From: Escherichia coli | Lineage (GTDB): Bacteria; Pseudomonadota; Gammaproteobacteria; Enterobacterales; Enterobacteriaceae | DNA length: 64,000 bases | NCBI RefSeq assembly: GCF_036507355.1 | Contig: NZ_AP027877.1 | Direction: 5' to 3' (one strand) | In this document: piece by piece, positions 3,437-34,089 of the stretch | Position numbering within the stretch: the first letter of the stretch is position 1 | Layout of the letters: every line of letters begins with the position of its first letter | Notes under the pieces: generated by a model | Seen by the model: only the letters and a program-made list of their open reading frames with translations | Database searches by the model: none | Told to the model about the DNA's origin: nothing | Program-made: the position numbers and the translations under genes

Positions 3437-5148
3437 TGAGCGAAAAACATCCAGGGCCTTTAGTGGTCGAAGGAAAACTGACAGACGCCGAGCGCATGAA
3501 GCTTGAAAGCAACTACCTGCGCGGCACCATTGCGGAAGATTTAAACGACGGTCTGACCGGCGGCTTTAAGGGCGACAACTTCCTGCTGATCCGCTTCCAC
3601 GGCATGTATCAGCAGGATGACCGCGACATCCGCGCCGAACGTGCTGAACAGAAGCTGGAGCCGCGCCATGCGATGCTGTTGCGCTGCCGTCTGCCGGGTG
3701 GAGTTATCACCACCAAACAGTGGCAGGCGATCGATAAATTTGCCGGTGAAAACACCATCTATGGCAGCATTCGCCTGACCAACCGCCAGACATTCCAGTT
3801 CCACGGCATTCTGAAAAAGAACGTCAAACCGGTGCACCAGATGCTGCACTCGGTCGGTCTTGATGCGCTGGCGACCGCTAACGACATGAACCGTAACGTA
3901 CTCTGCACCTCGAACCCTTACGAGTCGCAGCTGCACGCAGAAGCGTACGAGTGGGCGAAGAAAATATCTGAACATCTGCTGCCTCGTACCCGCGCGTATG
4001 CGGAGATCTGGCTCGATCAGGAAAAAGTCGCCACCACTGATGAAGAACCGATCCTCGGCCAGACCTACCTGCCGCGTAAATTCAAAACCACGGTAGTGAT
4101 CCCGCCACAGAACGATATCGATCTGCACGCCAACGACATGAACTTCGTGGCAATCGCCGAAAACGGCAAGCTGGTGGGCTTTAACCTGCTGGTGGGCGGT
4201 GGGCTTTCCATCGAACACGGCAACAAGAAAACCTACGCCCGCACCGCGAGTGAGTTTGGCTATCTGCCGCTGGAGCATACGCTGGCAGTGGCGGAAGCCG
4301 TCGTGACAACTCAGCGTGACTGGGGTAACCGAACCGATCGTAAAAATGCCAAAACCAAATACACGCTGGAGCGCGTGGGGGTTGAGACGTTTAAAGCGGA
4401 AGTGGAGCGTCGCGCGGGGATCAAATTCGAGCCGATTCGCCCGTATGAGTTTACCGGACGCGGAGATCGTATTGGCTGGGTTAAGGGCATTGATGATAAC
4501 TGGCACCTGACGCTGTTTATCGAAAATGGTCGCATCCTTGATTATCCGGGGCGTCCGCTGAAAACCGGCCTGCTGGAGATCGCGAAGATCCACAAAGGTG
4601 ATTTCCGCATTACGGCGAACCAGAATCTGATCATCGCCGGTGTGCCGGAAAGCGAGAAAGCGAAGATCGAGAAGATCGCCAAAGAGAGCGGGTTAATGAA
4701 TGCCGTCACGCCGCAGCGTGAAAACTCAATGGCCTGCGTCTCGTTCCCGACTTGCCCGCTGGCGATGGCGGAAGCGGAGCGTTTCCTGCCGTCTTTTATC
4801 GACAACATCGATAATTTAATGGCGAAACATGGTGTCAGCGATGAGCATATCGTGATGCGTGTAACAGGCTGCCCGAACGGTTGTGGTCGCGCGATGCTGG
4901 CGGAAGTGGGCCTGGTGGGTAAAGCGCCGGATCGCTACAACCTGCATCTTGGCGGCAACCGCATTGGGACACGTATCCCACGGATGTATAAAGAAAACAT
5001 CACCGAGCCGGAAATCCTGGCGTCGCTTGATGAACTGATAGGGCGCTGGGCGAAAGAGCGCGAAGCGGGTGAAGGCTTCGGCGACTTTACGGTGCGTGCG
5101 GGCATCATTCGCCCGGTGCTCGATCCGGCGCGCGATTTGTGGGATTAA
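3436..5148 (+). CDS. cysI: sulfite reductase hemoprotein beta subunit
   Basis: 570-aa ORF with C-terminal siroheme/4Fe-4S cysteine cluster ([16 protein letters not shown] ... [10 protein letters not shown]). Confidence 0.95.
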
Positions 5149-22414: not shown

Positions 22415-22480
22415 TTTGGGAAGCTTGTGTTTTTGTCGCCTGGATAAGACACGTCAGCGTCCTACCCGGCAATTTGCATC

Positions 22481-22888
22481 CTATGTGTTCATCATCTTGC
22501 GCACCAGCTGCACAAACAGCTCCTGCTCTTCTGCACTCAAACGCCCCAAAAATTCCTCATCCACGCTGTCACCAATCGGTATCGCCGCAGCAAGTATCTT
22601 TTCTCCTTCGGCAGTCAGCCAGACAAAGCGACGCCGCTTGTCAGCGGCATCATGTTCACGTCTGACTAAGCCACGATTCTCCATTCTTGCCAACATTTCT
22701 GCCAACGTTGCTTTGGTGCTGACTGCTGCTTCTATCAGTGCCACCTGTTCGATACCAGGCTTATCAGCAATGGCGCGCATCACCGCATACTGTGGTTTGG
22801 TCAGGTCAGGTAACTCGTGCTGCCAGCGAGCCGTGTGCTGCTGAAAAAGCTGTCGTAACTGATGGAACGCTTTATTTCGTAACGCCAT
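22481..22888 (-). CDS. hosA: MarR/SlyA-family transcriptional regulator (HosA-like)
   Basis: 135-aa ORF with winged-helix region; divergent from the adjacent decarboxylase genes. Confidence 0.75.
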   Translation of the reverse strand: MALRNKAFHQLRQLFQQHTARWQHELPDLTKPQYAVMRAIADKPGIEQVALIEAAVSTKATLAEMLARMENRGLVRREHDAADKRRRFVWLTAEGEKILAAAIPIGDSVDEEFLGRLSAEEQELFVQLVRKMMNT

Positions 22889-23034
22889 GTAAACTCCGGG
22901 CTAATTCTCTGTCGCTATCATAGCGGTTTTTTAGTGACGAAGAAGATGTTGTTACTTTTCAATCCTTGCCGCTGTGGAAATGAAGGAGTATGTTAATAAT
23001 AACGTTCGTATACGAACAATTAAGAGAATAAGCA

Positions 23035-23628
23035 ATGAAACTGATCGTCGGGATGACAGGGGCTACCGGTGCGCCTCTTGGTGTGGCATTACTGCAAGCG
23101 CTGCGGGAGATGCCGAATGTCGAGACTCATCTGGTGATGTCGAAGTGGGCGAAAACCACCATTGAACTGGAAACGCCTTACAGCGCCCGCGATGTTGCTG
23201 CCCTCGCTGACTTCAGCCATAACCCGGCGGATCAGGCGGCGACCATCTCCTCAGGTTCCTTTCGTACCGACGGCATGATCGTTATTCCGTGCAGTATGAA
23301 AACGCTCGCCGGTATCCGCGCTGGTTACGCCGATGGCCTGGTAGGGCGCGCGGCGGACGTCGTGCTCAAAGAAGGCCGCAAACTGGTGCTGGTGCCGCGT
23401 GAAATGCCGCTTAGCACCATCCATCTCGAAAATATGCTCGCACTTTCACGCATGGGCGTGGCGATGGTGCCGCCGATGCCTGCCTTTTATAACCATCCCG
23501 AAACGGTAGATGACATTGTCCACCATGTAGTAGCCCGCGTGCTGGATCAATTTGGCCTCGAACATCCCCACGCCAGGCGCTGGCAAGGATTGCCGCAGGC
23601 CCGGAATTTTTCTCAGGAGAATGAATAA
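23035..23628 (+). CDS. ecdB: UbiX/Pad1-family flavin prenyltransferase (decarboxylase accessory subunit B)
   Basis: 197-aa ORF MKLIVGMTGATGAPLGVALLQALREMPNVETHLVMSKWA, typical UbiX N-terminus. Confidence 0.8.
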   Translation: MKLIVGMTGATGAPLGVALLQALREMPNVETHLVMSKWAKTTIELETPYSARDVAALADFSHNPADQAATISSGSFRTDGMIVIPCSMKTLAGIRAGYADGLVGRAADVVLKEGRKLVLVPREMPLSTIHLENMLALSRMGVAMVPPMPAFYNHPETVDDIVHHVVARVLDQFGLEHPHARRWQGLPQARNFSQENE

Positions 23629-25055
23629 TGGCATTTGATGATTTACGCAGCTTTTTACAGGCGCTTGATGACCACGGCCAGTTACTGAAAATCAGCGAAG
23701 AGGTGAACGCGGAACCGGATCTGGCAGCAGCAGCTAACGCCACCGGGCGTATCGGTGACGGCGCGCCCGCGCTGTGGTTTGATAATATTCGCGGCTTTAC
23801 CGATGCCCGCGTGGCAATGAACACCATCGGTTCCTGGCAGAACCACGCGATTTCCCTCGGCCTGTCGCCAAACACCCCGGTCAAAAAGCAGATTGATGAG
23901 TTTATCCGCCGCTGGGATAACTTCCCGATTGCCCCGGAGCGCCGCGCCAATCCAGCCTGGGCGCAGAACACCGTCGATGGCGACGAGATCAACCTGTTCG
24001 ATATCCTGCCGCTGTTTCGTTTAAACGATGGCGATGGCGGTTTCTATCTCGACAAAGCGTGCGTGGTTTCCCGCGATCCGCTCGACCCGGATAACTTCGG
24101 CAAGCAGAACGTCGGCATCTACCGCATGGAAGTGAAGGGCAAGCGTAAGCTCGGCCTGCAACCGGTGCCGATGCACGATATCGCCCTGCATCTGCATAAA
24201 GCGGAAGAGCGCGGTGAAGATCTGCCGATTGCGATCACGCTCGGTAACGATCCGATCATCACGCTGATGGGGGCCACGCCGCTGAAATACGAACAGTCTG
24301 AGTATGAAATGGCAGGTGCGCTGCGTGAAAGCCCGTACCCGATCGCCACCGCCCCGCTGACCGGTTTTGATGTGCCGTGGGGTTCAGAAGTGATCCTCGA
24401 AGGGGTCATCGAAAGCCGTAAACGCGAAATCGAAGGGCCGTTCGGTGAGTTTACCGGACACTACTCCGGCGGGCGTAACATGACCGTGGTGCGCATCGAT
24501 AAAGTCTCTTACCGCACCAGGCCGATTTTCGAATCGCTGTACCTCGGCATGCCGTGGACCGAAATCGACTACCTGATGGGGCCAGCCACCTGTGTGCCGC
24601 TGTATCAGCAACTTAAAGCCGAGTTCCCGGAAGTACAGGCGGTGAACGCCATGTACAACCACGGCCTGCTGGCGATTATCTCCACCAAAAAACGCTACGG
24701 CGGCTTTGCCCGCGCGGTGGGCCTGCGTGCGATGACCACGCCGCACGGTCTGGGCTACGTAAAGATGGTGATTATGGTCGATGAAGACGTTGACCCGTTC
24801 AACCTGCCGCAGGTGATGTGGGCGCTCTCCTCGAAAGTAAATCCGGCAGGGGATTTGGTGCAGTTGCCGAATATGTCCGTGCTGGAACTCGACCCTGGCT
24901 CAAGCCCGGCGGGGATCACCGACAAGCTGATTATCGACGCCACCACGCCTGTCGCCCCGGACAACCGTGGTCACTACAGCCAGCCGGTGGTGGATTTGCC
25001 GGAAACCAAAGCCTGGGCTGAAAAACTGACCGCTATGCTGGCCGCACGTAAATAA
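23628..25055 (+). CDS. ecdC: UbiD-family non-oxidative aromatic acid decarboxylase (subunit C)
   Basis: 475-aa ORF overlapping ecdB stop; UbiD-like N-terminus MAFDDLRSFLQALDDHGQLLKISEEV. Confidence 0.8.
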   Translation: MAFDDLRSFLQALDDHGQLLKISEEVNAEPDLAAAANATGRIGDGAPALWFDNIRGFTDARVAMNTIGSWQNHAISLGLSPNTPVKKQIDEFIRRWDNFPIAPERRANPAWAQNTVDGDEINLFDILPLFRLNDGDGGFYLDKACVVSRDPLDPDNFGKQNVGIYRMEVKGKRKLGLQPVPMHDIALHLHKAEERGEDLPIAITLGNDPIITLMGATPLKYEQSEYEMAGALRESPYPIATAPLTGFDVPWGSEVILEGVIESRKREIEGPFGEFTGHYSGGRNMTVVRIDKVSYRTRPIFESLYLGMPWTEIDYLMGPATCVPLYQQLKAEFPEVQAVNAMYNHGLLAIISTKKRYGGFARAVGLRAMTTPHGLGYVKMVIMVDEDVDPFNLPQVMWALSSKVNPAGDLVQLPNMSVLELDPGSSPAGITDKLIIDATTPVAPDNRGHYSQPVVDLPETKAWAEKLTAMLAARK

Positions 25056-25065
25056 GGAGAACAAG

Positions 25066-25302
25066 ATGATTTGTCCACGTTGTGCCGATGAACAGATTGA
25101 AGTGATGGCGAAATCGCCGGTGAAAGATGTCTGGACGGTATATCAGTGCCAGCATTGCCTTTATACCTGGCGCGATACCGAACCGCTACGTCGCATCAGC
25201 CGCGAACATTATCCCGAAGCGTTCCGCATGACGCAGAAAGATATTGATGACGCGCCAATGGTGCCGAGCATTCCGCCGCTGCTGGCGGCAGATAAGCGCT
25301 AA
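25066..25302 (+). CDS. ecdD: small decarboxylase subunit D (zinc-ribbon-like, CxxC ... CxxC)
   Basis: 78-aa ORF MICPRCADEQIEVMAKSPVKDVWTVYQCQHCLYTWRD. Confidence 0.7.
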   Translation: MICPRCADEQIEVMAKSPVKDVWTVYQCQHCLYTWRDTEPLRRISREHYPEAFRMTQKDIDDAPMVPSIPPLLAADKR

Positions 25303-25342: not shown

Positions 25343-25999
25343 TTACTTTATTTTATAAAATGACAGCCGCCCGCTTTTCGGCGATCCGGTATCAATATAA
25401 ATCTGGTTAGCGAACGTCTGAATGTTATCAAGCATCATATGTCCAAATATAAAATAATCAGCGCCGTTTATTTGTTGTAACTCGCCATTAAGAGATTTCT
25501 GCACACGATCAACAGGCCAAAGTAATTCGCTCTCCGCTATTTGTTTGCCAAAGAGATATTCATTGCCCGGATAATCCGCATGTGCGATGACATATTTTAT
25601 AATGTCGTTGGTAATTTCAATAATATGTGGAAGTTGATGAAATTTCAGCAATAGACCTATAGCTTCTTTTTGTTCCATATCATTTAACTCAAAGAACCAG
25701 TCACCACCGCTGGCAAGCCACATATTGCCATCGCCGGTCGCGAACGCATCCAGCGCCATTGCTTCGTGGTTGCCTTTAACGGAGATAAACCAGGGCTGGT
25801 TTAGCAGGCGCAGGACGTCAAGACTCTCCGGCCCACGATCAATATTATCGCCGACAGAAATAAGTAAGTCGGTTTCGGGGAAAAAAGAGAGTTGATGTAA
25901 GCGGGATTGTAATAACTGATATTCACCATGAATATCACCAACGACCCATATATGGCGATAGTGATGGGCATTGATTTTTTGATAGCGTGTAGATGGCAT
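25343..25999 (-). CDS. pphB: serine/threonine protein phosphatase 2
   Basis: 218-aa ORF with metallophosphatase motifs GDIHGE and GDNIDRG. Confidence 0.9.
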   Translation of the reverse strand: MPSTRYQKINAHHYRHIWVVGDIHGEYQLLQSRLHQLSFFPETDLLISVGDNIDRGPESLDVLRLLNQPWFISVKGNHEAMALDAFATGDGNMWLASGGDWFFELNDMEQKEAIGLLLKFHQLPHIIEITNDIIKYVIAHADYPGNEYLFGKQIAESELLWPVDRVQKSLNGELQQINGADYFIFGHMMLDNIQTFANQIYIDTGSPKSGRLSFYKIK

Positions 26000-26104
26000 G
26001 GTTTTACCCTGTAAAATAAGCTTTCCTATTATACAGGGTATTTTTATTTGATTCGTCAGCTGTAGATAATATTCCCGATAGTATTTTTCTACCGGGAATT
26101 ATAA

Positions 26105-28666
26105 TTACACCAGACTCTTCAAGCGATAAATCCACTCCAGCGCCTGACGCGGGGTGAGTGAATCCGGATCGAGGTTTTCCAGTGCCTCGACCGCAGGCGA
26201 GGTTTCTTCTGGCACTGACAGCAAAGACATTTGCGTACCATCCACTTGCGTAGCGGCGGCGTTCGGCGAAATGCTTTCCAGCTCACGCAGTTTTTGCCGT
26301 GCGCGCTTAATAACCTCTTTTGGCACGCCGGCCAGAGCTGCAACCGCCAGGCCGTAGCTTTTGCTCGCCGCGCCATCCTGCACGCTATGCATAAAGGCAA
26401 TGGTGTCGCCGTGCTCCAGTGCATCGAGATGCACGTTGGCGACGCCTTCCATTTTCTCCGGTAACTGGGTCAGCTCGAAATAGTGGGTAGCAAACAGCGT
26501 CAATGCCTTAATCTTATTCGCCAGATTTTCCGCGCACGCCCATGCCAGTGACAGACCATCGTAAGTGGACGTTCCACGCCCGATCTCATCCATTAACACC
26601 AGACTGTATTCGGTGGCGTTATGTAAAATATTGGCGGTTTCAGTCATCTCCACCATAAAGGTTGAGCGCCCGGAAGCCAGGTCATCTGCCGCGCCTACGC
26701 GGGTAAAGATGCGATCGATAGGTCCAATCTCGACTTTTTGTGCCGGTACATAGCTGCCGATGTAGGCCATCAGCGCAATCAGTGCGGTCTGGCGCATATA
26801 GGTACTTTTACCGCCCATGTTCGGGCCGGTAATAATCAACATCCGGCGCTGCGGTGACAGATTCAGCGGGTTGGCGATAAATGGCTCGTTCAGCACCTGT
26901 TCAACCACCGGATGGCGGCCTTCGGTAATGCGAATGCCCGGTTTATCAATAAAGGTCGGGCAGGTGTAGTTCAGGGTATAGGCCCGTTCCGCCAGGTTCA
27001 CCAGCACGTCGAGTTCCGCCAGCGCGCTCGCGCTCTGTTGCAACGCTTCCAGATGCGGCAACAGCAGGTCGAACAGCTCTTCATAAAGCTGTTTTTCCAG
27101 AGCCAGTGCTTTGCCTTTTGAAGTGAGGACTTTATCTTCGTACTCTTTTAGCTCTGGAATGATGTAGCGCTCGGCGTTTTTCAGCGTCTGGCGACGCATA
27201 TAGTTGATAGGTGCCAGATGGCTTTGCCCACGGCTGATTTGAATGTAGTAGCCGTGCACCGCATTAAAGCCAACTTTTAGCGTGTCCAGGCCGGTACGTT
27301 CACGCTCGCGGACTTCCAGACGCTCCAGATAATCGGTCGCGCCGTCAGCCAGCGCGCGCCACTCATCCAGCTCTTCGTTATAGCCCGATGCGATAACACC
27401 ACCGTCGCGTACCAGCACCGGCGGTGTGTCGATGATTGCTCGCTCCAGCAGATCGCGCAGCTCGGCAAACTCGCCCATCTTCTCACGCAGCGCCTGTACC
27501 GGTGCACTATCGACAGTTTCTAACTGCGCACGCAGCTCCGGCAGTTGCTGGAAAGCGTGGCGCATACGGGCCAGATCGCGTGGGCGAGCGGTACGCAACG
27601 CCAGACGCGCCAGAATACGTTCCAGGTCGCCGACCTGACGCAGTACCGGCTGTAGCTCGGCGGTGAAATCCTGCAATGCGCCAATAGTTTGCTGGCGCTC
27701 AAGCAACACGCGGGTATCGCGCACTGGCATATGCAGCCAGCGTTTCAGCATACGGCTGCCCATCGGCGTGACGGTGCAGTCGAGCACAGAAGCCAGCGTA
27801 TTTTCCGCACCACCCGCCAGGTTCTGGGTGATTTCCAGATTACGACGCGTCGCGGCATCCATAATGATGCTGTCCTGCTCACGTTCCATGGTGATGGAAC
27901 GAATATGCGGCAGAGTCGTACGTTGGGTATCTTTCGCATACTGCAACAGACAACCGGCAGCACAAAGTCCGCGCGGCGCGTTCTCGACGCCAAAACCGAC
28001 CAGATCGCGAGTGCCAAATTGCAGATTCAACTGCTGGCGCGCGGTGTCGATTTCAAACTCCCACAGCGGGCGACGGCGCAGGCCGCGACGGCCTTCAATT
28101 AACGACATTTCAGCAAAATCTTCTGCATACAGCAATTCCGCAGGATTAGTGCGTTGCAGTTCTGCCGCCATCGTTTCCCGGTCAGCCGGTTCGCTCAGGC
28201 GAAAACGCCCGGAGCTGATATCCAGCGTCGCGTAGCCGAAACCTTTGCTGTCCTGCCAGATAGCCGCCAGCAGGTTGTCCTGACGCTCCTGCAACAGGGC
28301 TTCATCGCTGATGGTGCCTGGCGTAACGATACGCACAACTTTGCGCTCAACCGGACCTTTGCTGGTCGCCGGATCGCCAATTTGTTCGCAGATGGCAACG
28401 GACTCGCCCTGATTCACCAGTTTGGCGAGGTAGTTTTCCACCGCATGGTAGGGAATCCCCGCCATCGGGATCGGCTCTCCCGCCGAAGCACCGCGTTTGG
28501 TCAGTGAAATATCCAGCAGTTGCGACGCGCGTTTTGCGTCGTCATAAAACAGTTCATAAAAATCACCCATCCGGTAAAACAGCAGGATCTCGGGATGCTG
28601 GGCTTTCAGCTTGAGATACTGCTGCATCATGGGCGTATGGGCGTCGAAATTTTCTATTGCACTCAT
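26105..28666 (-). CDS. mutS: DNA mismatch repair protein MutS
   Basis: 853-aa [43 protein letters not shown] with Walker [10 protein letters not shown]. Confidence 0.97.
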
Positions 28667-28912
28667 GGGGTTATGTCCGGTTCCCTGATATTAAATGGGG
28701 TGTGATGGTTTTTATTTTCGTTGTAATCACATAAGGCGCACATGATACCGGAGTTAATCATTTCAGGGGAAGAAGCGAACGGCGAGTTCTTGATGCTGGT
28801 TCCGGGAAAGATGCTGTTTTGCAGCTTTTGCGTGATGCTTATGAAGCAAGTACGCAAAATTGCGTCGGTTGAATAAACCTCCTCCTTCAGAGCCATAGTC
28901 CCCTTTCAAATT

Positions 28913-28935
28913 AAGTTGTAGTATAAATACACCTT
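28913..28935 (+). promoter_or_regulatory. candidate NsrR operator in the ygbA promoter
   Basis: AAGTTGTAGTATAAATACACCTT resembles the NsrR inverted-repeat consensus; about 20 bp upstream of ygbA. Confidence 0.45.
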
Positions 28936-28952
28936 AAGAGTATGGAGGCAGC

Positions 28953-29297
28953 ATGTCCGGCAAGCGTATCTCTCGTGAAAAACTGACGATTAAAAAAATG
29001 ATCGATCTTTATCAAGCGAAATGCCCGCAGGCGTCAGCGGAGCCGGAGCATTACGAGGCGTTGTTTGTTTACGCGCAAAAGCGGCTGGATAAATGTGTGT
29101 TCGGCGAAGAGAAGCCAGCCTGTAAGCAGTGTCCGGTGCACTGTTACCAGCCTGCAAAGCGTGAGGAGATGAAACAGATTATGCGTTGGGCCGGGCCGAG
29201 AATGCTGTGGCGTCATCCGATCTTAACCGTGCGTCATCTCATCGATGACAAGCGTCCGGTGCCAGAGTTGCCAGAAAAATATCGTCCAAAGAAATAA
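28953..29297 (+). CDS. ygbA: cysteine-rich small protein YgbA
   Basis: 114-aa ORF with CxxC pairs; between mutS and fhlA. Confidence 0.8.
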   Translation: MSGKRISREKLTIKKMIDLYQAKCPQASAEPEHYEALFVYAQKRLDKCVFGEEKPACKQCPVHCYQPAKREEMKQIMRWAGPRMLWRHPILTVRHLIDDKRPVPELPEKYRPKK

Positions 29298-29335
29298 ATC
29301 TGCCGGAGAGCCATACTCTCCGGCAAATAAGGCGC

Positions 29336-29764
29336 TTACGTTTTGGTAGCAATCAGGATTGCTGATGCTTTGATCAACGCAATAACGCGTGAGCCAGTGG
29401 TAAGTTTCATTTCATCCTGACTTTCATTTGTTACCACTGCCACAATTTCAAAACCCGCATCCGTTTTGATATGGACAGTGGCGTTCACTGCGCCTTCGGT
29501 GATTGTCGACACGCTGCCAGCAAACTGGTTGCGAGCAGAGAATTTCAGTCCACAGTCTTCCGTGGCCAGCGTTACCCACGGGGCTTTAATCAGGGCAATC
29601 GCTTCTTTCCCTTTTGCCAGCCCCAGAGCCTGTTGGCTGCTGTGTGTAACAATCGCCACCAGTTTTGCACCACCTGCCAGCGTCAGTTCTACTTCGTCAT
29701 TCACCGCGCCCATTGCTACTGCGCTAACTGTTCCGGTTAATTGATTTCTTGCTGAAACTGCCAT
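29336..29764 (-). CDS. molybdate/tungstate-binding protein with tandem TOBE (Mop) domains
   Basis: ORF 29336..29803; start at internal MAVSARNQLTGTV preceded by an AGGAGG SD; two repeats of about 70 aa, each with SARNQ ... G-V ... V-hydrophobic-K pattern. Confidence 0.7.
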   Translation of the reverse strand: MAVSARNQLTGTVSAVAMGAVNDEVELTLAGGAKLVAIVTHSSQQALGLAKGKEAIALIKAPWVTLATEDCGLKFSARNQFAGSVSTITEGAVNATVHIKTDAGFEIVAVVTNESQDEMKLTTGSRVIALIKASAILIATKT

Positions 29765-29808
29765 ACTGCCTCCTTTCATTGAATGTTGATCGAGTATAAC
29801 CACATCTG

Positions 29809-31887
29809 TTAAATCAATGCCGATTTATCAATTCCCAGTCGCTTCATCCGTGACAGCAGGGTCGTGCGTTTCAGCCCCAGACGTTGCGCAGCGCCTTTAG
29901 GCCCGGCAACCACGCCGTTAGTTTCTTTCAGCACGCGAACAATCAACTGATATTCATCTTCGCCCTCCTGAGCGACAACCGTTGCGGCAGGCGGCGTTTC
30001 AGGCTCCGGTAAAGCAATATCTGGCAATGACAGCTGCAGCACGTTGCCGCGTGTTAGCAATACCGCGCGCTCAATGACGTTTTCCAGTTCGCGTACGTTA
30101 CCCGGCCACTCCATATTGCTCAAGGTGCGCAACGTCTCGGCAGGAATGCTGTCGATATTGCGCCCCAGACGACGGGCAATTTTGAAGGTAAAGGCTTTCG
30201 CCAGCAGCGGAATATCTTCCGGACGCTCGCGTAGTGGCGGAAGGTGAATCGGGAATACGTTCAGGCGGTAATAGAGATCGCTACGGAACTCACGGTCGGC
30301 GACCATTTTTTTCAGATCGCGGTTAGTCGCGGCGATTAGACGCACGTCCGTCTGAATGATTTTGTTGCTGCCGAGGCGTTCAAACTCCTGTTCCTGCAAT
30401 ACACGCAGCAACTTCGGCTGTAACTCCAGTGGCATATCGCCCACTTCGTCGAGGAACAGGGAGCTTTTATCCGCCAGTTCAAAACGACCGATACGCTGGG
30501 CGCTGGCACCGGTAAAAGCCCCACGCTCATGACCAAACAGATCGCTCTCCAGCAATCCGGCAGGCATCGCCGCGCAGTTCATTTTGACCATGCGGCGATT
30601 ATTACGCCCACTGAGATTATGGATAGCACGGGCAATCAGCTCTTTACCCGTGCCAGTTTCACCGAGGATCAGCACGGTACTGTCACTTTGCGCCACCATT
30701 TCAACTTGTTTAAGCACGCTGTACATGGCTTCGCTGCGGCCAATAATCTCGCCAAATTCACTATCAACATTGTTGAGCTGCTCGGTCAGGGCGAGGTTTT
30801 CATCAACCAGCCGTTCTTTCAGACGATGGATTTCCTGATAGGCGAGGGCGTTATCGACAGCGATTGCCACACGTTCGGCAATCTGGCGCAGTAAATTCAG
30901 ATTGGTAGTGGTAAACACTTTCTCTTCACATTGCGCCAGTTTCAGCACGCCCAGCATGGTGTCGCCAGACATCAGCGGTAACAGGCACAAGGTTTGAATC
31001 TGGTTGCCCCAGGTGTCGAACAACATGCGTTCATAGGGGGCTAAATCATCCCGCTCGTGGAGATTAATCAGCAGCATCTCTTTACTTTTGAACACGCGTT
31101 CGGTGAGGGTTCCGGCTTCATCGACTTCGCTCTGTTCGTGGGCGGGATGCTGTTTATCAAGATAGTGAGTGGAGTAGATGTTGAGTTTGTTTTTACGGTG
31201 GCTGCGTAAGACGATACTGATATCGTCAATATCGAAATAGTAATGGATTTCTTTGGCGACTTCGCTGACCAGTTCGTCCATATCCAGGCGGGAAAGCACC
31301 GCGTTGGTGATGGCGACCAGGATGCGGAAGTTATCGCGTTCCCGGCATAACAACTCATAGTCGACATTGTTAACGACGCGACTCTGGATTTGTTCGGTGA
31401 CGACAGAAACGATCTGCGTAAATGTTTGCAGACGATTGAACTCTTTTTCGCTCCAGGGGCGATCGTCATAACGAATAAATTCACAGCCACCAAAAATATG
31501 CCCTTCCGCCGCCAGTGGCATCAGGCAATAGTGAGCAAATTTTGGGTATAGCCCACCTGCGGCCAGCTGCGGCCAGGTTTCACAAAATTCTTCGTAACTG
31601 CAATGCAGCGTATCAGGGCGCGACAAAATGCTGCGTACCGGACCGTGTGCCAGAACAGTTTCGTCTTCATATTTAATGGGGGTGTCTTTTTCACGCGATG
31701 CGTAATAAGACGCACGTTGAGTCTGCGCTTGCCACAACACAATAGCCGCGTTGTCGGCGAGCGCAGAACGCTTTACCAGTTGCGAAAGAGCCTCACACAG
31801 CGAGGCCAGATCGGGCTGCTGCAATAGTGTCCGAGTGATGTCGAACAACCCTTGCTGTCCGAGATCACTCATCGGTGTATATGACAT
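29809..31887 (-). CDS. fhlA: formate hydrogenlyase transcriptional activator (sigma-54 dependent)
   Basis: ORF 29809..31923; start at internal MSYTPMSDLGQQGLFDITR (692 aa); AAA+ motifs GETGTGKE and GAFTGA; C-terminal HTH. Confidence 0.95.
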   Translation of the reverse strand: MSYTPMSDLGQQGLFDITRTLLQQPDLASLCEALSQLVKRSALADNAAIVLWQAQTQRASYYASREKDTPIKYEDETVLAHGPVRSILSRPDTLHCSYEEFCETWPQLAAGGLYPKFAHYCLMPLAAEGHIFGGCEFIRYDDRPWSEKEFNRLQTFTQIVSVVTEQIQSRVVNNVDYELLCRERDNFRILVAITNAVLSRLDMDELVSEVAKEIHYYFDIDDISIVLRSHRKNKLNIYSTHYLDKQHPAHEQSEVDEAGTLTERVFKSKEMLLINLHERDDLAPYERMLFDTWGNQIQTLCLLPLMSGDTMLGVLKLAQCEEKVFTTTNLNLLRQIAERVAIAVDNALAYQEIHRLKERLVDENLALTEQLNNVDSEFGEIIGRSEAMYSVLKQVEMVAQSDSTVLILGETGTGKELIARAIHNLSGRNNRRMVKMNCAAMPAGLLESDLFGHERGAFTGASAQRIGRFELADKSSLFLDEVGDMPLELQPKLLRVLQEQEFERLGSNKIIQTDVRLIAATNRDLKKMVADREFRSDLYYRLNVFPIHLPPLRERPEDIPLLAKAFTFKIARRLGRNIDSIPAETLRTLSNMEWPGNVRELENVIERAVLLTRGNVLQLSLPDIALPEPETPPAATVVAQEGEDEYQLIVRVLKETNGVVAGPKGAAQRLGLKRTTLLSRMKRLGIDKSALI

Positions 31888-31960
31888 TTTGTTCTTCCAG
31901 GAAAGCACCGCAAAGCGGTGCAAAAGGTCATTGACTAACTATAGGAGATTTAGAATTTTA

Positions 31961-32971
31961 TTAGCATATACGCGGAAGCGGTTCGGCGTGTGGTAAATCG
32001 AGGGTTCGTTTCACGCCATACAGACCGGCAAGACGAACACCTTTACGTTCCACCACTTCACCAATCAGCGCCGCGTCTTTCCCCAGTGGATGGGAATGTA
32101 ACGCTGCCAGCACTTGCTCTGCCGCGTTGCGTTCAACGGCGATCACCAGTTTGCCTTCGTTGGCAAAGTTCAGGGCGTCCAGTCCCAGCAGTTCGCAAAC
32201 GCCGCGCACGGCAGGTTTAACCGGCAGTGCCGCTTCTGAAATTTCAATACCACAACCGCAGGCTGCCGCGAACTCATGTACCACCGCGTTTACACCACCA
32301 CGGGTGGCATCACGCAGCGCTTTCACGCCGGGAATGTCATGCAGCGTCTGAATAAGCGGCGTTAGTACCGCGCAGTCGCTGACCAGTTCGCCATCCAGCC
32401 CCAGCTGCTCACGCAGGTTAAGGATAGTCGCCCCGTGGTCGCCGAGTGTACCGCTAACCAGCAATACATCGCCTGCGGTTAGCGTCTGTGCGCCCCAGTG
32501 AATATTCGCCGGAATTGCGCCCATGCCCGCGGTGTTGATAAACAGTTTATCTGCCGCGCCGCGCTGCACCACTTTAGTATCGCCAGTAACGATGGCAATG
32601 CCTGCCGTGCGGGCGGTTTCTGCCATGCTGGTCACTACGGCTTTCAGTGTCTCCATCGGCAATCCTTCTTCGAGGATAAAGCCACAGGAGAGATAGCGCG
32701 GAATAGCGCCACTGACCGCAACGTCATTGGCGGTGCCGCAAATCGCCAGCTTGCCGATATTACCGCCAGGGAAGAACAGCGGGTCAATAACGTAACTGTC
32801 GGTGGAGAACGCCAGACGGTCGCCTTCCGCTACCAGTTGCGCCAGATCAAGACGTGCCTGATCTTCCTGCTCTGCCAGCCACGGGTTGGCAAAGGCTTCC
32901 ATAAACAGGCTGTTGATTAATTGCTGCATCGCCTGGCCGCCGCTGCCGTGGGCGAGTTGGATATTATTCAC
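31961..32971 (-). CDS. hypE: hydrogenase maturation carbamoyl dehydratase
   Basis: 336-aa ORF MNNIQLAHGSGGQAMQQLI; ends in the PRIC motif. Confidence 0.93.
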   Translation of the reverse strand: MNNIQLAHGSGGQAMQQLINSLFMEAFANPWLAEQEDQARLDLAQLVAEGDRLAFSTDSYVIDPLFFPGGNIGKLAICGTANDVAVSGAIPRYLSCGFILEEGLPMETLKAVVTSMAETARTAGIAIVTGDTKVVQRGAADKLFINTAGMGAIPANIHWGAQTLTAGDVLLVSGTLGDHGATILNLREQLGLDGELVSDCAVLTPLIQTLHDIPGVKALRDATRGGVNAVVHEFAAACGCGIEISEAALPVKPAVRGVCELLGLDALNFANEGKLVIAVERNAAEQVLAALHSHPLGKDAALIGEVVERKGVRLAGLYGVKRTLDLPHAEPLPRIC

Positions 32972-34089
32972 GCTTCACTCTCCTGCTGACGATACTGATA
33001 CCACGCGGCGCACGCTCCTTCGGAGGAAACCATCAGCGCACCAAACGCGGTTTGAGGATTACAGGTGTTACCAAACAGCGGGCATTGATGCGGCTTACAT
33101 TTGCCCGTTAATACTTCACCACAACGCGCACGCGGGTCATCGCAGACCTGCTGCGGTGCCGGGCGGAAATGTGCTTCGGCATCGAATCGTTGATAATCCG
33201 GCGTCAGGTGCACGCCAGAAGATTCAATCACGCCTAAGCCGCGCCATTCGCTGTCGCCGTTGACACAGAACACATCGGCAATCGCCTGTTGCGCCAGCAG
33301 GTTACCGGCATCCGGTACCACCCGACGATACTGATTCTCAACCTTGCTGTGGGCCGCTATTTTCTGCTCCACCAGCATCACCACGCCTTGCAGTAGATCA
33401 AGGGGTTCGAAACCAGCGACCACCAGCGGACGATGAAAATCGCTGGCGATAAAATTATAGGCATCAGTGCCGATAACCATACTAACGTGGCCCGGCGCGA
33501 GGAACGCGTCGATACCGTTATCCGGCTGTTCCAGCAAACTGCGAAGCGTCGGGATAAGCGTAATGTGCTGGCAGAAGAAGTAAAAATTCTGCACATCACG
33601 CGCTTTCGCCTGTTGCAGAGTGATAGCGGTGGTCGGCATGGTGGTTTCAAAACCTAAGCCGAAGAACACCACTTTGCGGGTTGGATTCTCCTGCGCCAGT
33701 TTCAACGCATCCATCGGCGAGTAAACGATGCGCACATCGGCACCGCGTGCTTTTGCCTGCAACAGCGATCCCTGTTTCCCCGGCACGCGCATGGCGTCGC
33801 CAAAGGTACAGAAGATGACTTCCGGATGGCTGGCAATCTCCACGCAGGTGTCGATTCTGTCCATCGGCAGTACGCACACCGGGCAACCCGGACCGTGGAT
33901 AAACTCAACGTTTTCAGGCAGTAACTGGTCGAGGCCGAATTTAAAAATGGCGTGGGTATGACCACCGCACACTTCCATAATCCGCAGAGGGCGTTCGGCT
34001 GTGTAAGAGAGATGTGAAGCACGTTCGCGCAGATGCTCAATTAACTGCATCACCTGTTCCGGCGCGCGATATTCATCAACAAAACGCAT
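32968..34089 (-). CDS. hypD: hydrogenase maturation factor HypD
   Basis: 373-aa ORF with CGxH and GPGCPVC motifs. Confidence 0.93.
   Translation of the reverse strand: MRFVDEYRAPEQVMQLIEHLRERASHLSYTAERPLRIMEVCGGHTHAIFKFGLDQLLPENVEFIHGPGCPVCVLPMDRIDTCVEIASHPEVIFCTFGDAMRVPGKQGSLLQAKARGADVRIVYSPMDALKLAQENPTRKVVFFGLGFETTMPTTAITLQQAKARDVQNFYFFCQHITLIPTLRSLLEQPDNGIDAFLAPGHVSMVIGTDAYNFIASDFHRPLVVAGFEPLDLLQGVVMLVEQKIAAHSKVENQYRRVVPDAGNLLAQQAIADVFCVNGDSEWRGLGVIESSGVHLTPDYQRFDAEAHFRPAPQQVCDDPRARCGEVLTGKCKPHQCPLFGNTCNPQTAFGALMVSSEGACAAWYQYRQQESEA

Follow-up and report, generated by a model that had tools for sequence, protein, structure and literature searches.

Between the gene of the formate hydrogenlyase activator, fhlA, and ygbA, the E. 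coli DNA analysed here contains a short additional gene whose product is made up of two TOBE/Mop repeats. We call the whole stretch of 64,000 nucleotides that was analysed the window. Formate dehydrogenase H of the formate hydrogenlyase (FHL) system requires molybdenum, and the initial annotation of the locus had proposed that the product of the gene could act as a molybdate store or as a sensor linked to FHL expression. Which of the two is the better description of this protein, and how closely is the gene tied to FHL? No publications on the gene in E. coli or other enterobacteria were found in a literature search.

The gene and its protein

The open reading frame starts with the ATG at position 29764 and has 143 codons including the stop codon. 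The protein is therefore 142 amino acids long and not 141 as counted initially. The position of the gene between fhlA and ygbA was confirmed by the window coordinates and by annotated genomes (Table 1), and the ribosome-binding site of its own that had been assigned to the gene is present as AGGAGG, with GGAGG or GGAG at the equivalent spot in the enterobacterial orthologues. A longer open reading frame of 155 amino acids, beginning with a GTG at 29803, was rejected because all 48 orthologues begin with M-x-x-SARN behind the same Shine–Dalgarno sequence. The length of 142 amino acids is found in 47 of these 48 orthologues. In RefSeq the protein is labelled TOBE domain-containing protein (WP_000301062.1) and elsewhere in E. 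coli also molybdopterin-binding protein; the copy in the window differs from WP_000301062.1 by a single residue, a T instead of an A at position 142.

Table 1. Positions of the gene, its neighbours and the sequence elements around it in the window, with the loci of other genomes in which the gene has outlived its neighbours
Feature	Position	Strand	Remarks
TOBE/Mop gene, coding sequence	29336..29764	minus	142-aa di-Mop molbindin, ModG type; stop codon 29336–29338
Shine–Dalgarno sequence AGGAGG	29769..29774	minus	4 nt 5' of the ATG; read from the sequence
Motif GG(T/C)TATACT	29793..29801	minus	lies in the 44-nt spacer that separates the gene from fhlA; first base of TATACT at -34 relative to the ATG
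fhlA	29809..31887	minus	upstream of the TOBE/Mop gene, same strand, 44-nt gap
Terminator-like hairpin with U-rich tail	29298..29328	minus	14 pairs; 8 nt past the stop codon; terminator scan
ygbA	28953..29297	plus	downstream, convergent with the gene; product of 114 aa here and of 117 aa in K-12-type strains
Difference between gene-bearing and K-12-type allele	29295..29808		514 bp versus 48 nt, net 466 bp; junction sequences
Loci with fhlA or the whole cluster deleted and the TOBE gene intact	L015, L031, L036, L041, L048

The protein consists of exactly two tandem Mop/TOBE domains, and Pfam and NCBIfam gave no other domains. The search with TOBE-domain profiles yielded a clear result: there are two matches to Pfam TOBE (PF03459; E = 8.8e-35, 119 bits at a cut-off of 22.3) and two matches to the NCBIfam family TIGR00638, Mop (E = 4e-42). 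Aligned at an offset of 72, the two repeats are identical at 30 of 70 residues. Among proteins of known structure ModG of Azotobacter vinelandii is the closest (1H9J, match over residues 1–139, that is over the full length, E = 5.8e-33), with the E. coli ModE di-Mop domain in second place (E = 1e-15) and single-domain Mop and Tub proteins after it. For an AlphaFold model of the monomer, 79 stand-alone di-Mop proteins were aligned as input; the model is of very high confidence (pLDDT 97.1, pTM 0.88). The best structural match of the model is again ModG (TM 0.95, rmsd 1.4 Å, 48% identity over the full length), the second the di-Mop domain of E. coli ModE (TM 0.88–0.90), and the matches also include MopII and the ModE di-Mop domain in complex with tungstate. 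Both the profile matches and the closest structure bear out the earlier description as a stand-alone tandem TOBE/Mop protein.

Two types of oxyanion site have been described for Mop, Tub and ModG (PMC11980592, a 2025 paper on Tub). On the threefold axis, the backbone of A20-V21-N22 forms the type-1 site; S4, R6, K60 and A61, together with S40 of the neighbouring subunit, form the type-2 site, and ModG is a trimer with eight bound molybdates (PMC11980592). This list of contact residues could be mapped onto the protein via the alignments without any shift. The corresponding residues are S4, R6, A20-V21-N22, T40, K60 and A61 in repeat 1 and S76, R78, A92-V93-N94, T112, K132 and A133 in repeat 2. 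Across 49 orthologues the contact residues of either site type vary hardly or not at all in both repeats, and in an alignment of 79 diverse stand-alone di-Mop proteins the type-2 contacts and V93 likewise show next to no variation.

ModG (1H9J, 1H9K, 1H9M) likewise comprises two Mop domains and nothing else, 145 amino acids compared to 142, and the residues of both site types are kept between the two proteins. According to work cited in PMC11980592, modG of A. vinelandii lies in the mod region, is controlled by ModE and supplies nitrogenase and nitrate reductase. The E. coli gene, in contrast, follows fhlA in an organism that is not a diazotroph, and no mod genes adjoin it; its regulation presumably differs as well, and no ModE box was found at the gene.

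The C-terminal di-Mop domain of E. coli ModE (1H9R, 1H9S, 1O7L, 1B9M) has the same tandem Mop fold, is 34–36% identical and shares the type-2 ligand motif (SARN ... T ... KA). Unlike ModE, the protein has no N-terminal helix-turn-helix domain and begins directly with the first Mop domain. The ModE family NF007957 was matched at profile positions 124–261 only, with 88 bits at a cut-off of 369. Since the helix-turn-helix domain is missing, the protein is not ModE and cannot bind DNA as a regulator alone.

Each half of the protein also aligns with the single-domain proteins of about 70 amino acids, MopII of C. pasteurianum (1GUG), Mop of S. ovata (1FR3) and Tub of E. limosum (9BEB), with identical numbering of the ligand residues. 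The same quaternary logic is expected, with six Mop domains giving eight sites. In contrast to Mop and Tub two domains are fused in each chain, so that three chains instead of six would form the particle. The same OB-like TOBE fold occurs in the ATPases of ABC transporters (ModC, WtpC, MalK), and the C-terminal 60–70 residues of ModC and WtpC are weakly matched. We rejected ModC or WtpC as the identity of the protein: it has no ATPase domain, and it reached 47–49 bits at cut-offs of 285–440 with the C-terminal TOBE part only.

An exhaustive family search returned 2231 representative clusters at E <= 1e-3, of which many are stand-alone proteins of 138–146 amino acids and others have the length of ModE, about 265–275 amino acids. 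The stand-alone di-Mop family is large and already known, as are its fold and its mode of binding. Judged by domain content, full-length homology, predicted fold and ligand residues, the 142-aa protein belongs to the ModG-type molbindins. The gene is an uncharacterised, ordinary member of this known family, with an already generic annotation in RefSeq, and not a new kind of system.

Distribution and history of the locus

The gene was found in 1892 of 5426 complete E. coli genomes, always on the chromosome and always in a single copy. It is present, for example, in UTI89, E2348/69 and an ST131 strain, and missing, for example, from C600, an O16:H48 strain and the O104:H4 strain 2011C-3493. The initial annotation had suspected that K-12 has no gene at this position, and this proved right. 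In K-12-type genomes the locus is devoid of the gene, ygbA and fhlA are 36 nt apart, and a single shared junction of this type is present in 3508 of the 5426 genomes with 98–100% identity. The comparison of synteny across E. coli hence showed a gene that is not universal and is absent from about 65% of the genomes.

The gene-bearing segment is replaced in the K-12-type allele by a junction of 48 nt which looks unrelated and has a hairpin of its own; ygbA is three codons longer in this allele. A clean deletion by microhomology in K-12 was considered and discarded, as the 48 nt of the junction do not simply correspond to parts of the 514-bp segment. A hairpin follows ygbA in either allele (29298–29328 in the window, 3924–3946 in the K-12-type locus L002). 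The stems differ by paired changes, GCCGGAGAG...CTCTCCGGC in the window and GCCGGACAG...CTGTCCGGC in the K-12-type allele, and the loops differ, too. Because stems and loops differ between the alleles, the 48-nt junction is not a simple product of deletion.

Around the segment the sequence is a recombination mosaic. Taken per 500 bp against four E. coli comparators, the identity of mutS in the window varies from 94% to 100%, and the ygbA segment 28748–29247 has about 95.5% identity with each of them. The fhlA gene of the window, on the other side, is 99.6–100% identical to that of a strain without the TOBE gene, and the first 431 bp of fhlA are 100% identical. This mosaic of 25343–29300 (mutS to ygbA) versus 29809–33850 (fhlA to hyp) suggests that recombination breakpoints flank the indel. 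The mutS region is a known hot spot of recombination. Presence and absence of the gene need not track clonal descent.

The order hypE–fhlA–gene–ygbA is also found in E. albertii, in a genome of an Escherichia cryptic clade, in E. fergusonii and in several Citrobacter, and furthermore in Klebsiella, Raoultella, Kluyvera, Pluralibacter, Enterobacter, Lelliottia, Yokenella and Kosakonia. Since the order recurs across these genera, the gene is ancestral at this locus in the Enterobacteriaceae and the K-12-type allele is a loss. A single event of replacement or deletion would have taken the gene out of the E. coli lineage that includes K-12.

The gene is also retained where its neighbours are gone. 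In three loci, two from Phytobacter and one from Kosakonia, fhlA alone is deleted, leaving hypE, a remnant of the 3' end of fhlA and an intact TOBE gene. The hyc–hyp–fhlA cluster is missing altogether from Raoultella sp. BIGb0138 and Enterobacter sp. BIGb0383, where the intact TOBE gene lies beside asc genes. The orthologues of Salmonella enterica (87–89% identical; loci L054, L055, L058 and L059) are not situated next to fhlA. They are part of accessory islands with IS21 or IS66 fragments and with genes for a fimbrial usher and chaperone, and one type of island also contains a YedY-like molybdoenzyme pair. The gene appears to have moved horizontally in Salmonella. The orthologues of Serratia and Edwardsiella have unrelated neighbours, and no molybdenum-, hydrogenase- or formate-related genes were found among these.

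Where present, the gene is live and under purifying selection. The dN/dS values relative to the orthologues range from 0.02 to 0.11 (Nei–Gojobori), and the copy of E2348/69 differs from that of the window by 17 synonymous and one non-synonymous changes. The protein WP_000301062.1 is identical among strains whose DNA differs by 3–4%. At least 80% of the gene is covered in 1889 of the 1892 carrier genomes, and the length, the context of the start codon and the Shine–Dalgarno sequence are kept across genera.

Transcription and possible roles of the protein

The hairpin downstream of the gene has a minimum free energy of -23.8 kcal/mol (z = -3.76), and none of 200 shuffled sequences was as stable. 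It could serve both the gene and the convergent ygbA. Between fhlA and the gene the terminator scan found no terminator-like site. Since there is no terminator in between and a strong one after the gene, transcription is likely to read through from fhlA into the gene, and we infer from the arrangement of the sequence that hypA–E, fhlA and the TOBE/Mop gene probably make up one transcription unit.

The spacer upstream of the gene was also inspected for promoters. A hexamer of the form TATA[AC][AT] is present at exactly -34 in 14 loci of Escherichia, Citrobacter, Pseudocitrobacter, Pluralibacter and relatives; seven Kluyvera loci have it at -46. In shuffled sequence a mean of 1.7 loci had such a hexamer anywhere from -45 to -25, and among the genera sharing the hexamer at -34 the synonymous sites are saturated. 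TATACT may be read as a candidate -10 element of a weak promoter belonging to the gene. No acceptable -35 element was found for it, and a consensus scan of 28600–30400 called no sigma-70 promoter. A sigma-54 promoter was discarded, as no GG-N10-GC element could be seen by eye in the spacer. A ModE operator was rejected as well: the spacer contains a good look-alike of the left half-site, GGTTATAC, but the full pattern searched for (GTTATAT-N8-ACATAAC with up to three mismatches) is absent near 29765–29900. In the whole window this pattern gave six matches compared to 2.9 expected.

We considered four explanations for the role of the protein. The first, which we regard as probable, is that it is a ModG-type molbindin serving as a cytoplasmic buffer or store of molybdate, that it is made together with the hyp and fhlA products, and that its gene is ancestral and was lost in the K-12 lineage. 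The following account of oligomeric state, ligand binding, co-transcription and physiological role is in all its parts what we infer for the protein. By analogy with ModG of A. vinelandii three chains of 142 amino acids would form a trimer equivalent to a Mop hexamer, with a predicted capacity of up to eight oxyanions, molybdate or tungstate. Two of them would be held on the threefold axis at the type-1 sites by the backbone of A20-V21-N22 and A92-V93-N94, and six at the buried type-2 sites of the interfaces, lined by S4, R6, T40, K60 and A61 and by S76, R78, T112, K132 and A133. The bound oxyanion would then constitute an intracellular buffer or store for the synthesis of molybdenum cofactor. 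The gene would be expressed as the last one of the hyp–fhlA string, 44 nt after fhlA, possibly with some contribution of a weak promoter of its own. Because it is the last gene of the string and the terminator comes only after it, the protein is probably made together with the formate hydrogenlyase machinery. The molybdate store of the initial annotation is the best reading of the protein, predicted from the homology to ModG and the conserved ligand residues.

The second explanation takes up the sensor that had been proposed next to the store. As a regulatory partner the di-Mop protein would sense molybdate and modulate a regulator, either in mixed oligomers with ModE or by acting on FhlA, and would in this way adjust how expression of hyc, fdhF, mod or moa depends on molybdate in the carriers. 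The position of the gene is in favour of this proposal: it lies directly downstream of the gene of the FHL activator, on the same strand and with no terminator in between, and this adjacency is conserved across genera. Furthermore, in both structure and sequence the second-best match of the protein is the E. coli ModE di-Mop domain, which senses molybdate. An interaction of Mop from Rhodobacter capsulatus with MopB, a ModE-like regulator, has been reported, as has a dependence of hyc transcription on ModE-molybdate in K-12. On the other hand, a DNA-binding or other effector domain is absent from the protein, the gene persists without fhlA or without hyc–hyp, its orthologues have unrelated surroundings in Salmonella, Serratia and Edwardsiella, and it is missing from about two thirds of the E. 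coli genomes. K-12, which lacks the gene, has a working FHL system and regulates it by molybdate. From the proposed link to FHL the conserved position remains, and the tie suggested by it is weak; we consider a regulatory partner unlikely.

The third explanation concerns the ligand. The protein could mainly sequester tungstate, either to keep it away from the synthesis of molybdenum cofactor or as a supply, and strains with and without the gene would then differ in their sensitivity to tungstate. The preference for molybdate or tungstate is not distinguishable by sequence, and the related Tub binds both, its TOBE/Mop sites taking up tungstate about as well as molybdate (PMC11980592). Architectures of the ModG type are common in predicted users of tungsten (PMC11980592), and the tungstate complexes among the structural matches of the model fit in with this. 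However, no tup or wtp genes are found nearby, and the sequence of the protein gives no sign of selectivity. Enterobacteriaceae are not known for routine use of tungsten enzymes. Tungstate handling as the main task appears quite improbable, and it shares with the regulatory partner that it found little support.

Finally, the absence of the gene from the 3508 K-12-type genomes and its location in a recombination mosaic beside mutS would be compatible with a decaying leftover that is functionless now in E. coli, but we regard such a dispensable relic as very improbable since it is contradicted by the strong purifying selection (the low dN/dS values), by the identical protein in strains with diverged DNA, by the intact gene in nearly all carriers and by the length, ribosome-binding site and ligand residues kept across genera.

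If the protein is a buffer or store of molybdate or tungstate, about a third of the E. coli genomes and many other Enterobacteriaceae would possess a layer of molybdenum handling that is absent from K-12, the strain in which enterobacterial molybdenum homeostasis has been worked out almost entirely. Such a layer could affect the enzymes of formate metabolism and anaerobic respiration, which matter for gut colonisation, as well as the response to tungstate. We put forward only tentatively, as a possibility more doubtful than the function itself, that a strain-variable cytoplasmic molybdenum or tungsten buffer, co-expressed with fhlA, alters the ability of E. coli lineages to deal with scarce molybdenum or with tungstate. 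If this were true, carriers would keep formate dehydrogenase H and other molybdoenzymes active at lower molybdate than K-12-type strains or would differ from them in their tungstate response, and K-12 would be an incomplete model for enterobacterial molybdenum homeostasis. In a bolder version the protein would pass a molybdate signal into the FhlA- or ModE-dependent control of FHL. The presence/absence polymorphism of the gene provides natural comparisons of a nearly isogenic kind.

Further observations on the neighbourhood

In the closest complete genome the order of genes is rpoS, a MarR-family gene, the genes of hydroxyarylic acid decarboxylase BCD, pphB, mutS, an open reading frame of 44 amino acids, ygbA, the TOBE/Mop gene, fhlA, hypEDCBA and hycA onwards. 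The 44-aa open reading frame is located at 28742–28876 (plus strand) between mutS and ygbA. RefSeq lists its product as hypothetical (WP_000611932.1 or WP_000611926.1), and it occurs in gene-bearing as well as in K-12-type strains.

The interval between rpoS and mutS (about 22480–25300) contains a MarR-family regulator, the subunits B, C and D of hydroxyarylic acid decarboxylase and then pphB. Strain 14EC033 carries ygbI beside pphB instead, so this interval varies between strains, too. In every E. coli record examined, PGAP names the gene of the formate hydrogenlyase activator flhA and its product FlhA instead of fhlA, a slip that clashes with the flagellar gene flhA.
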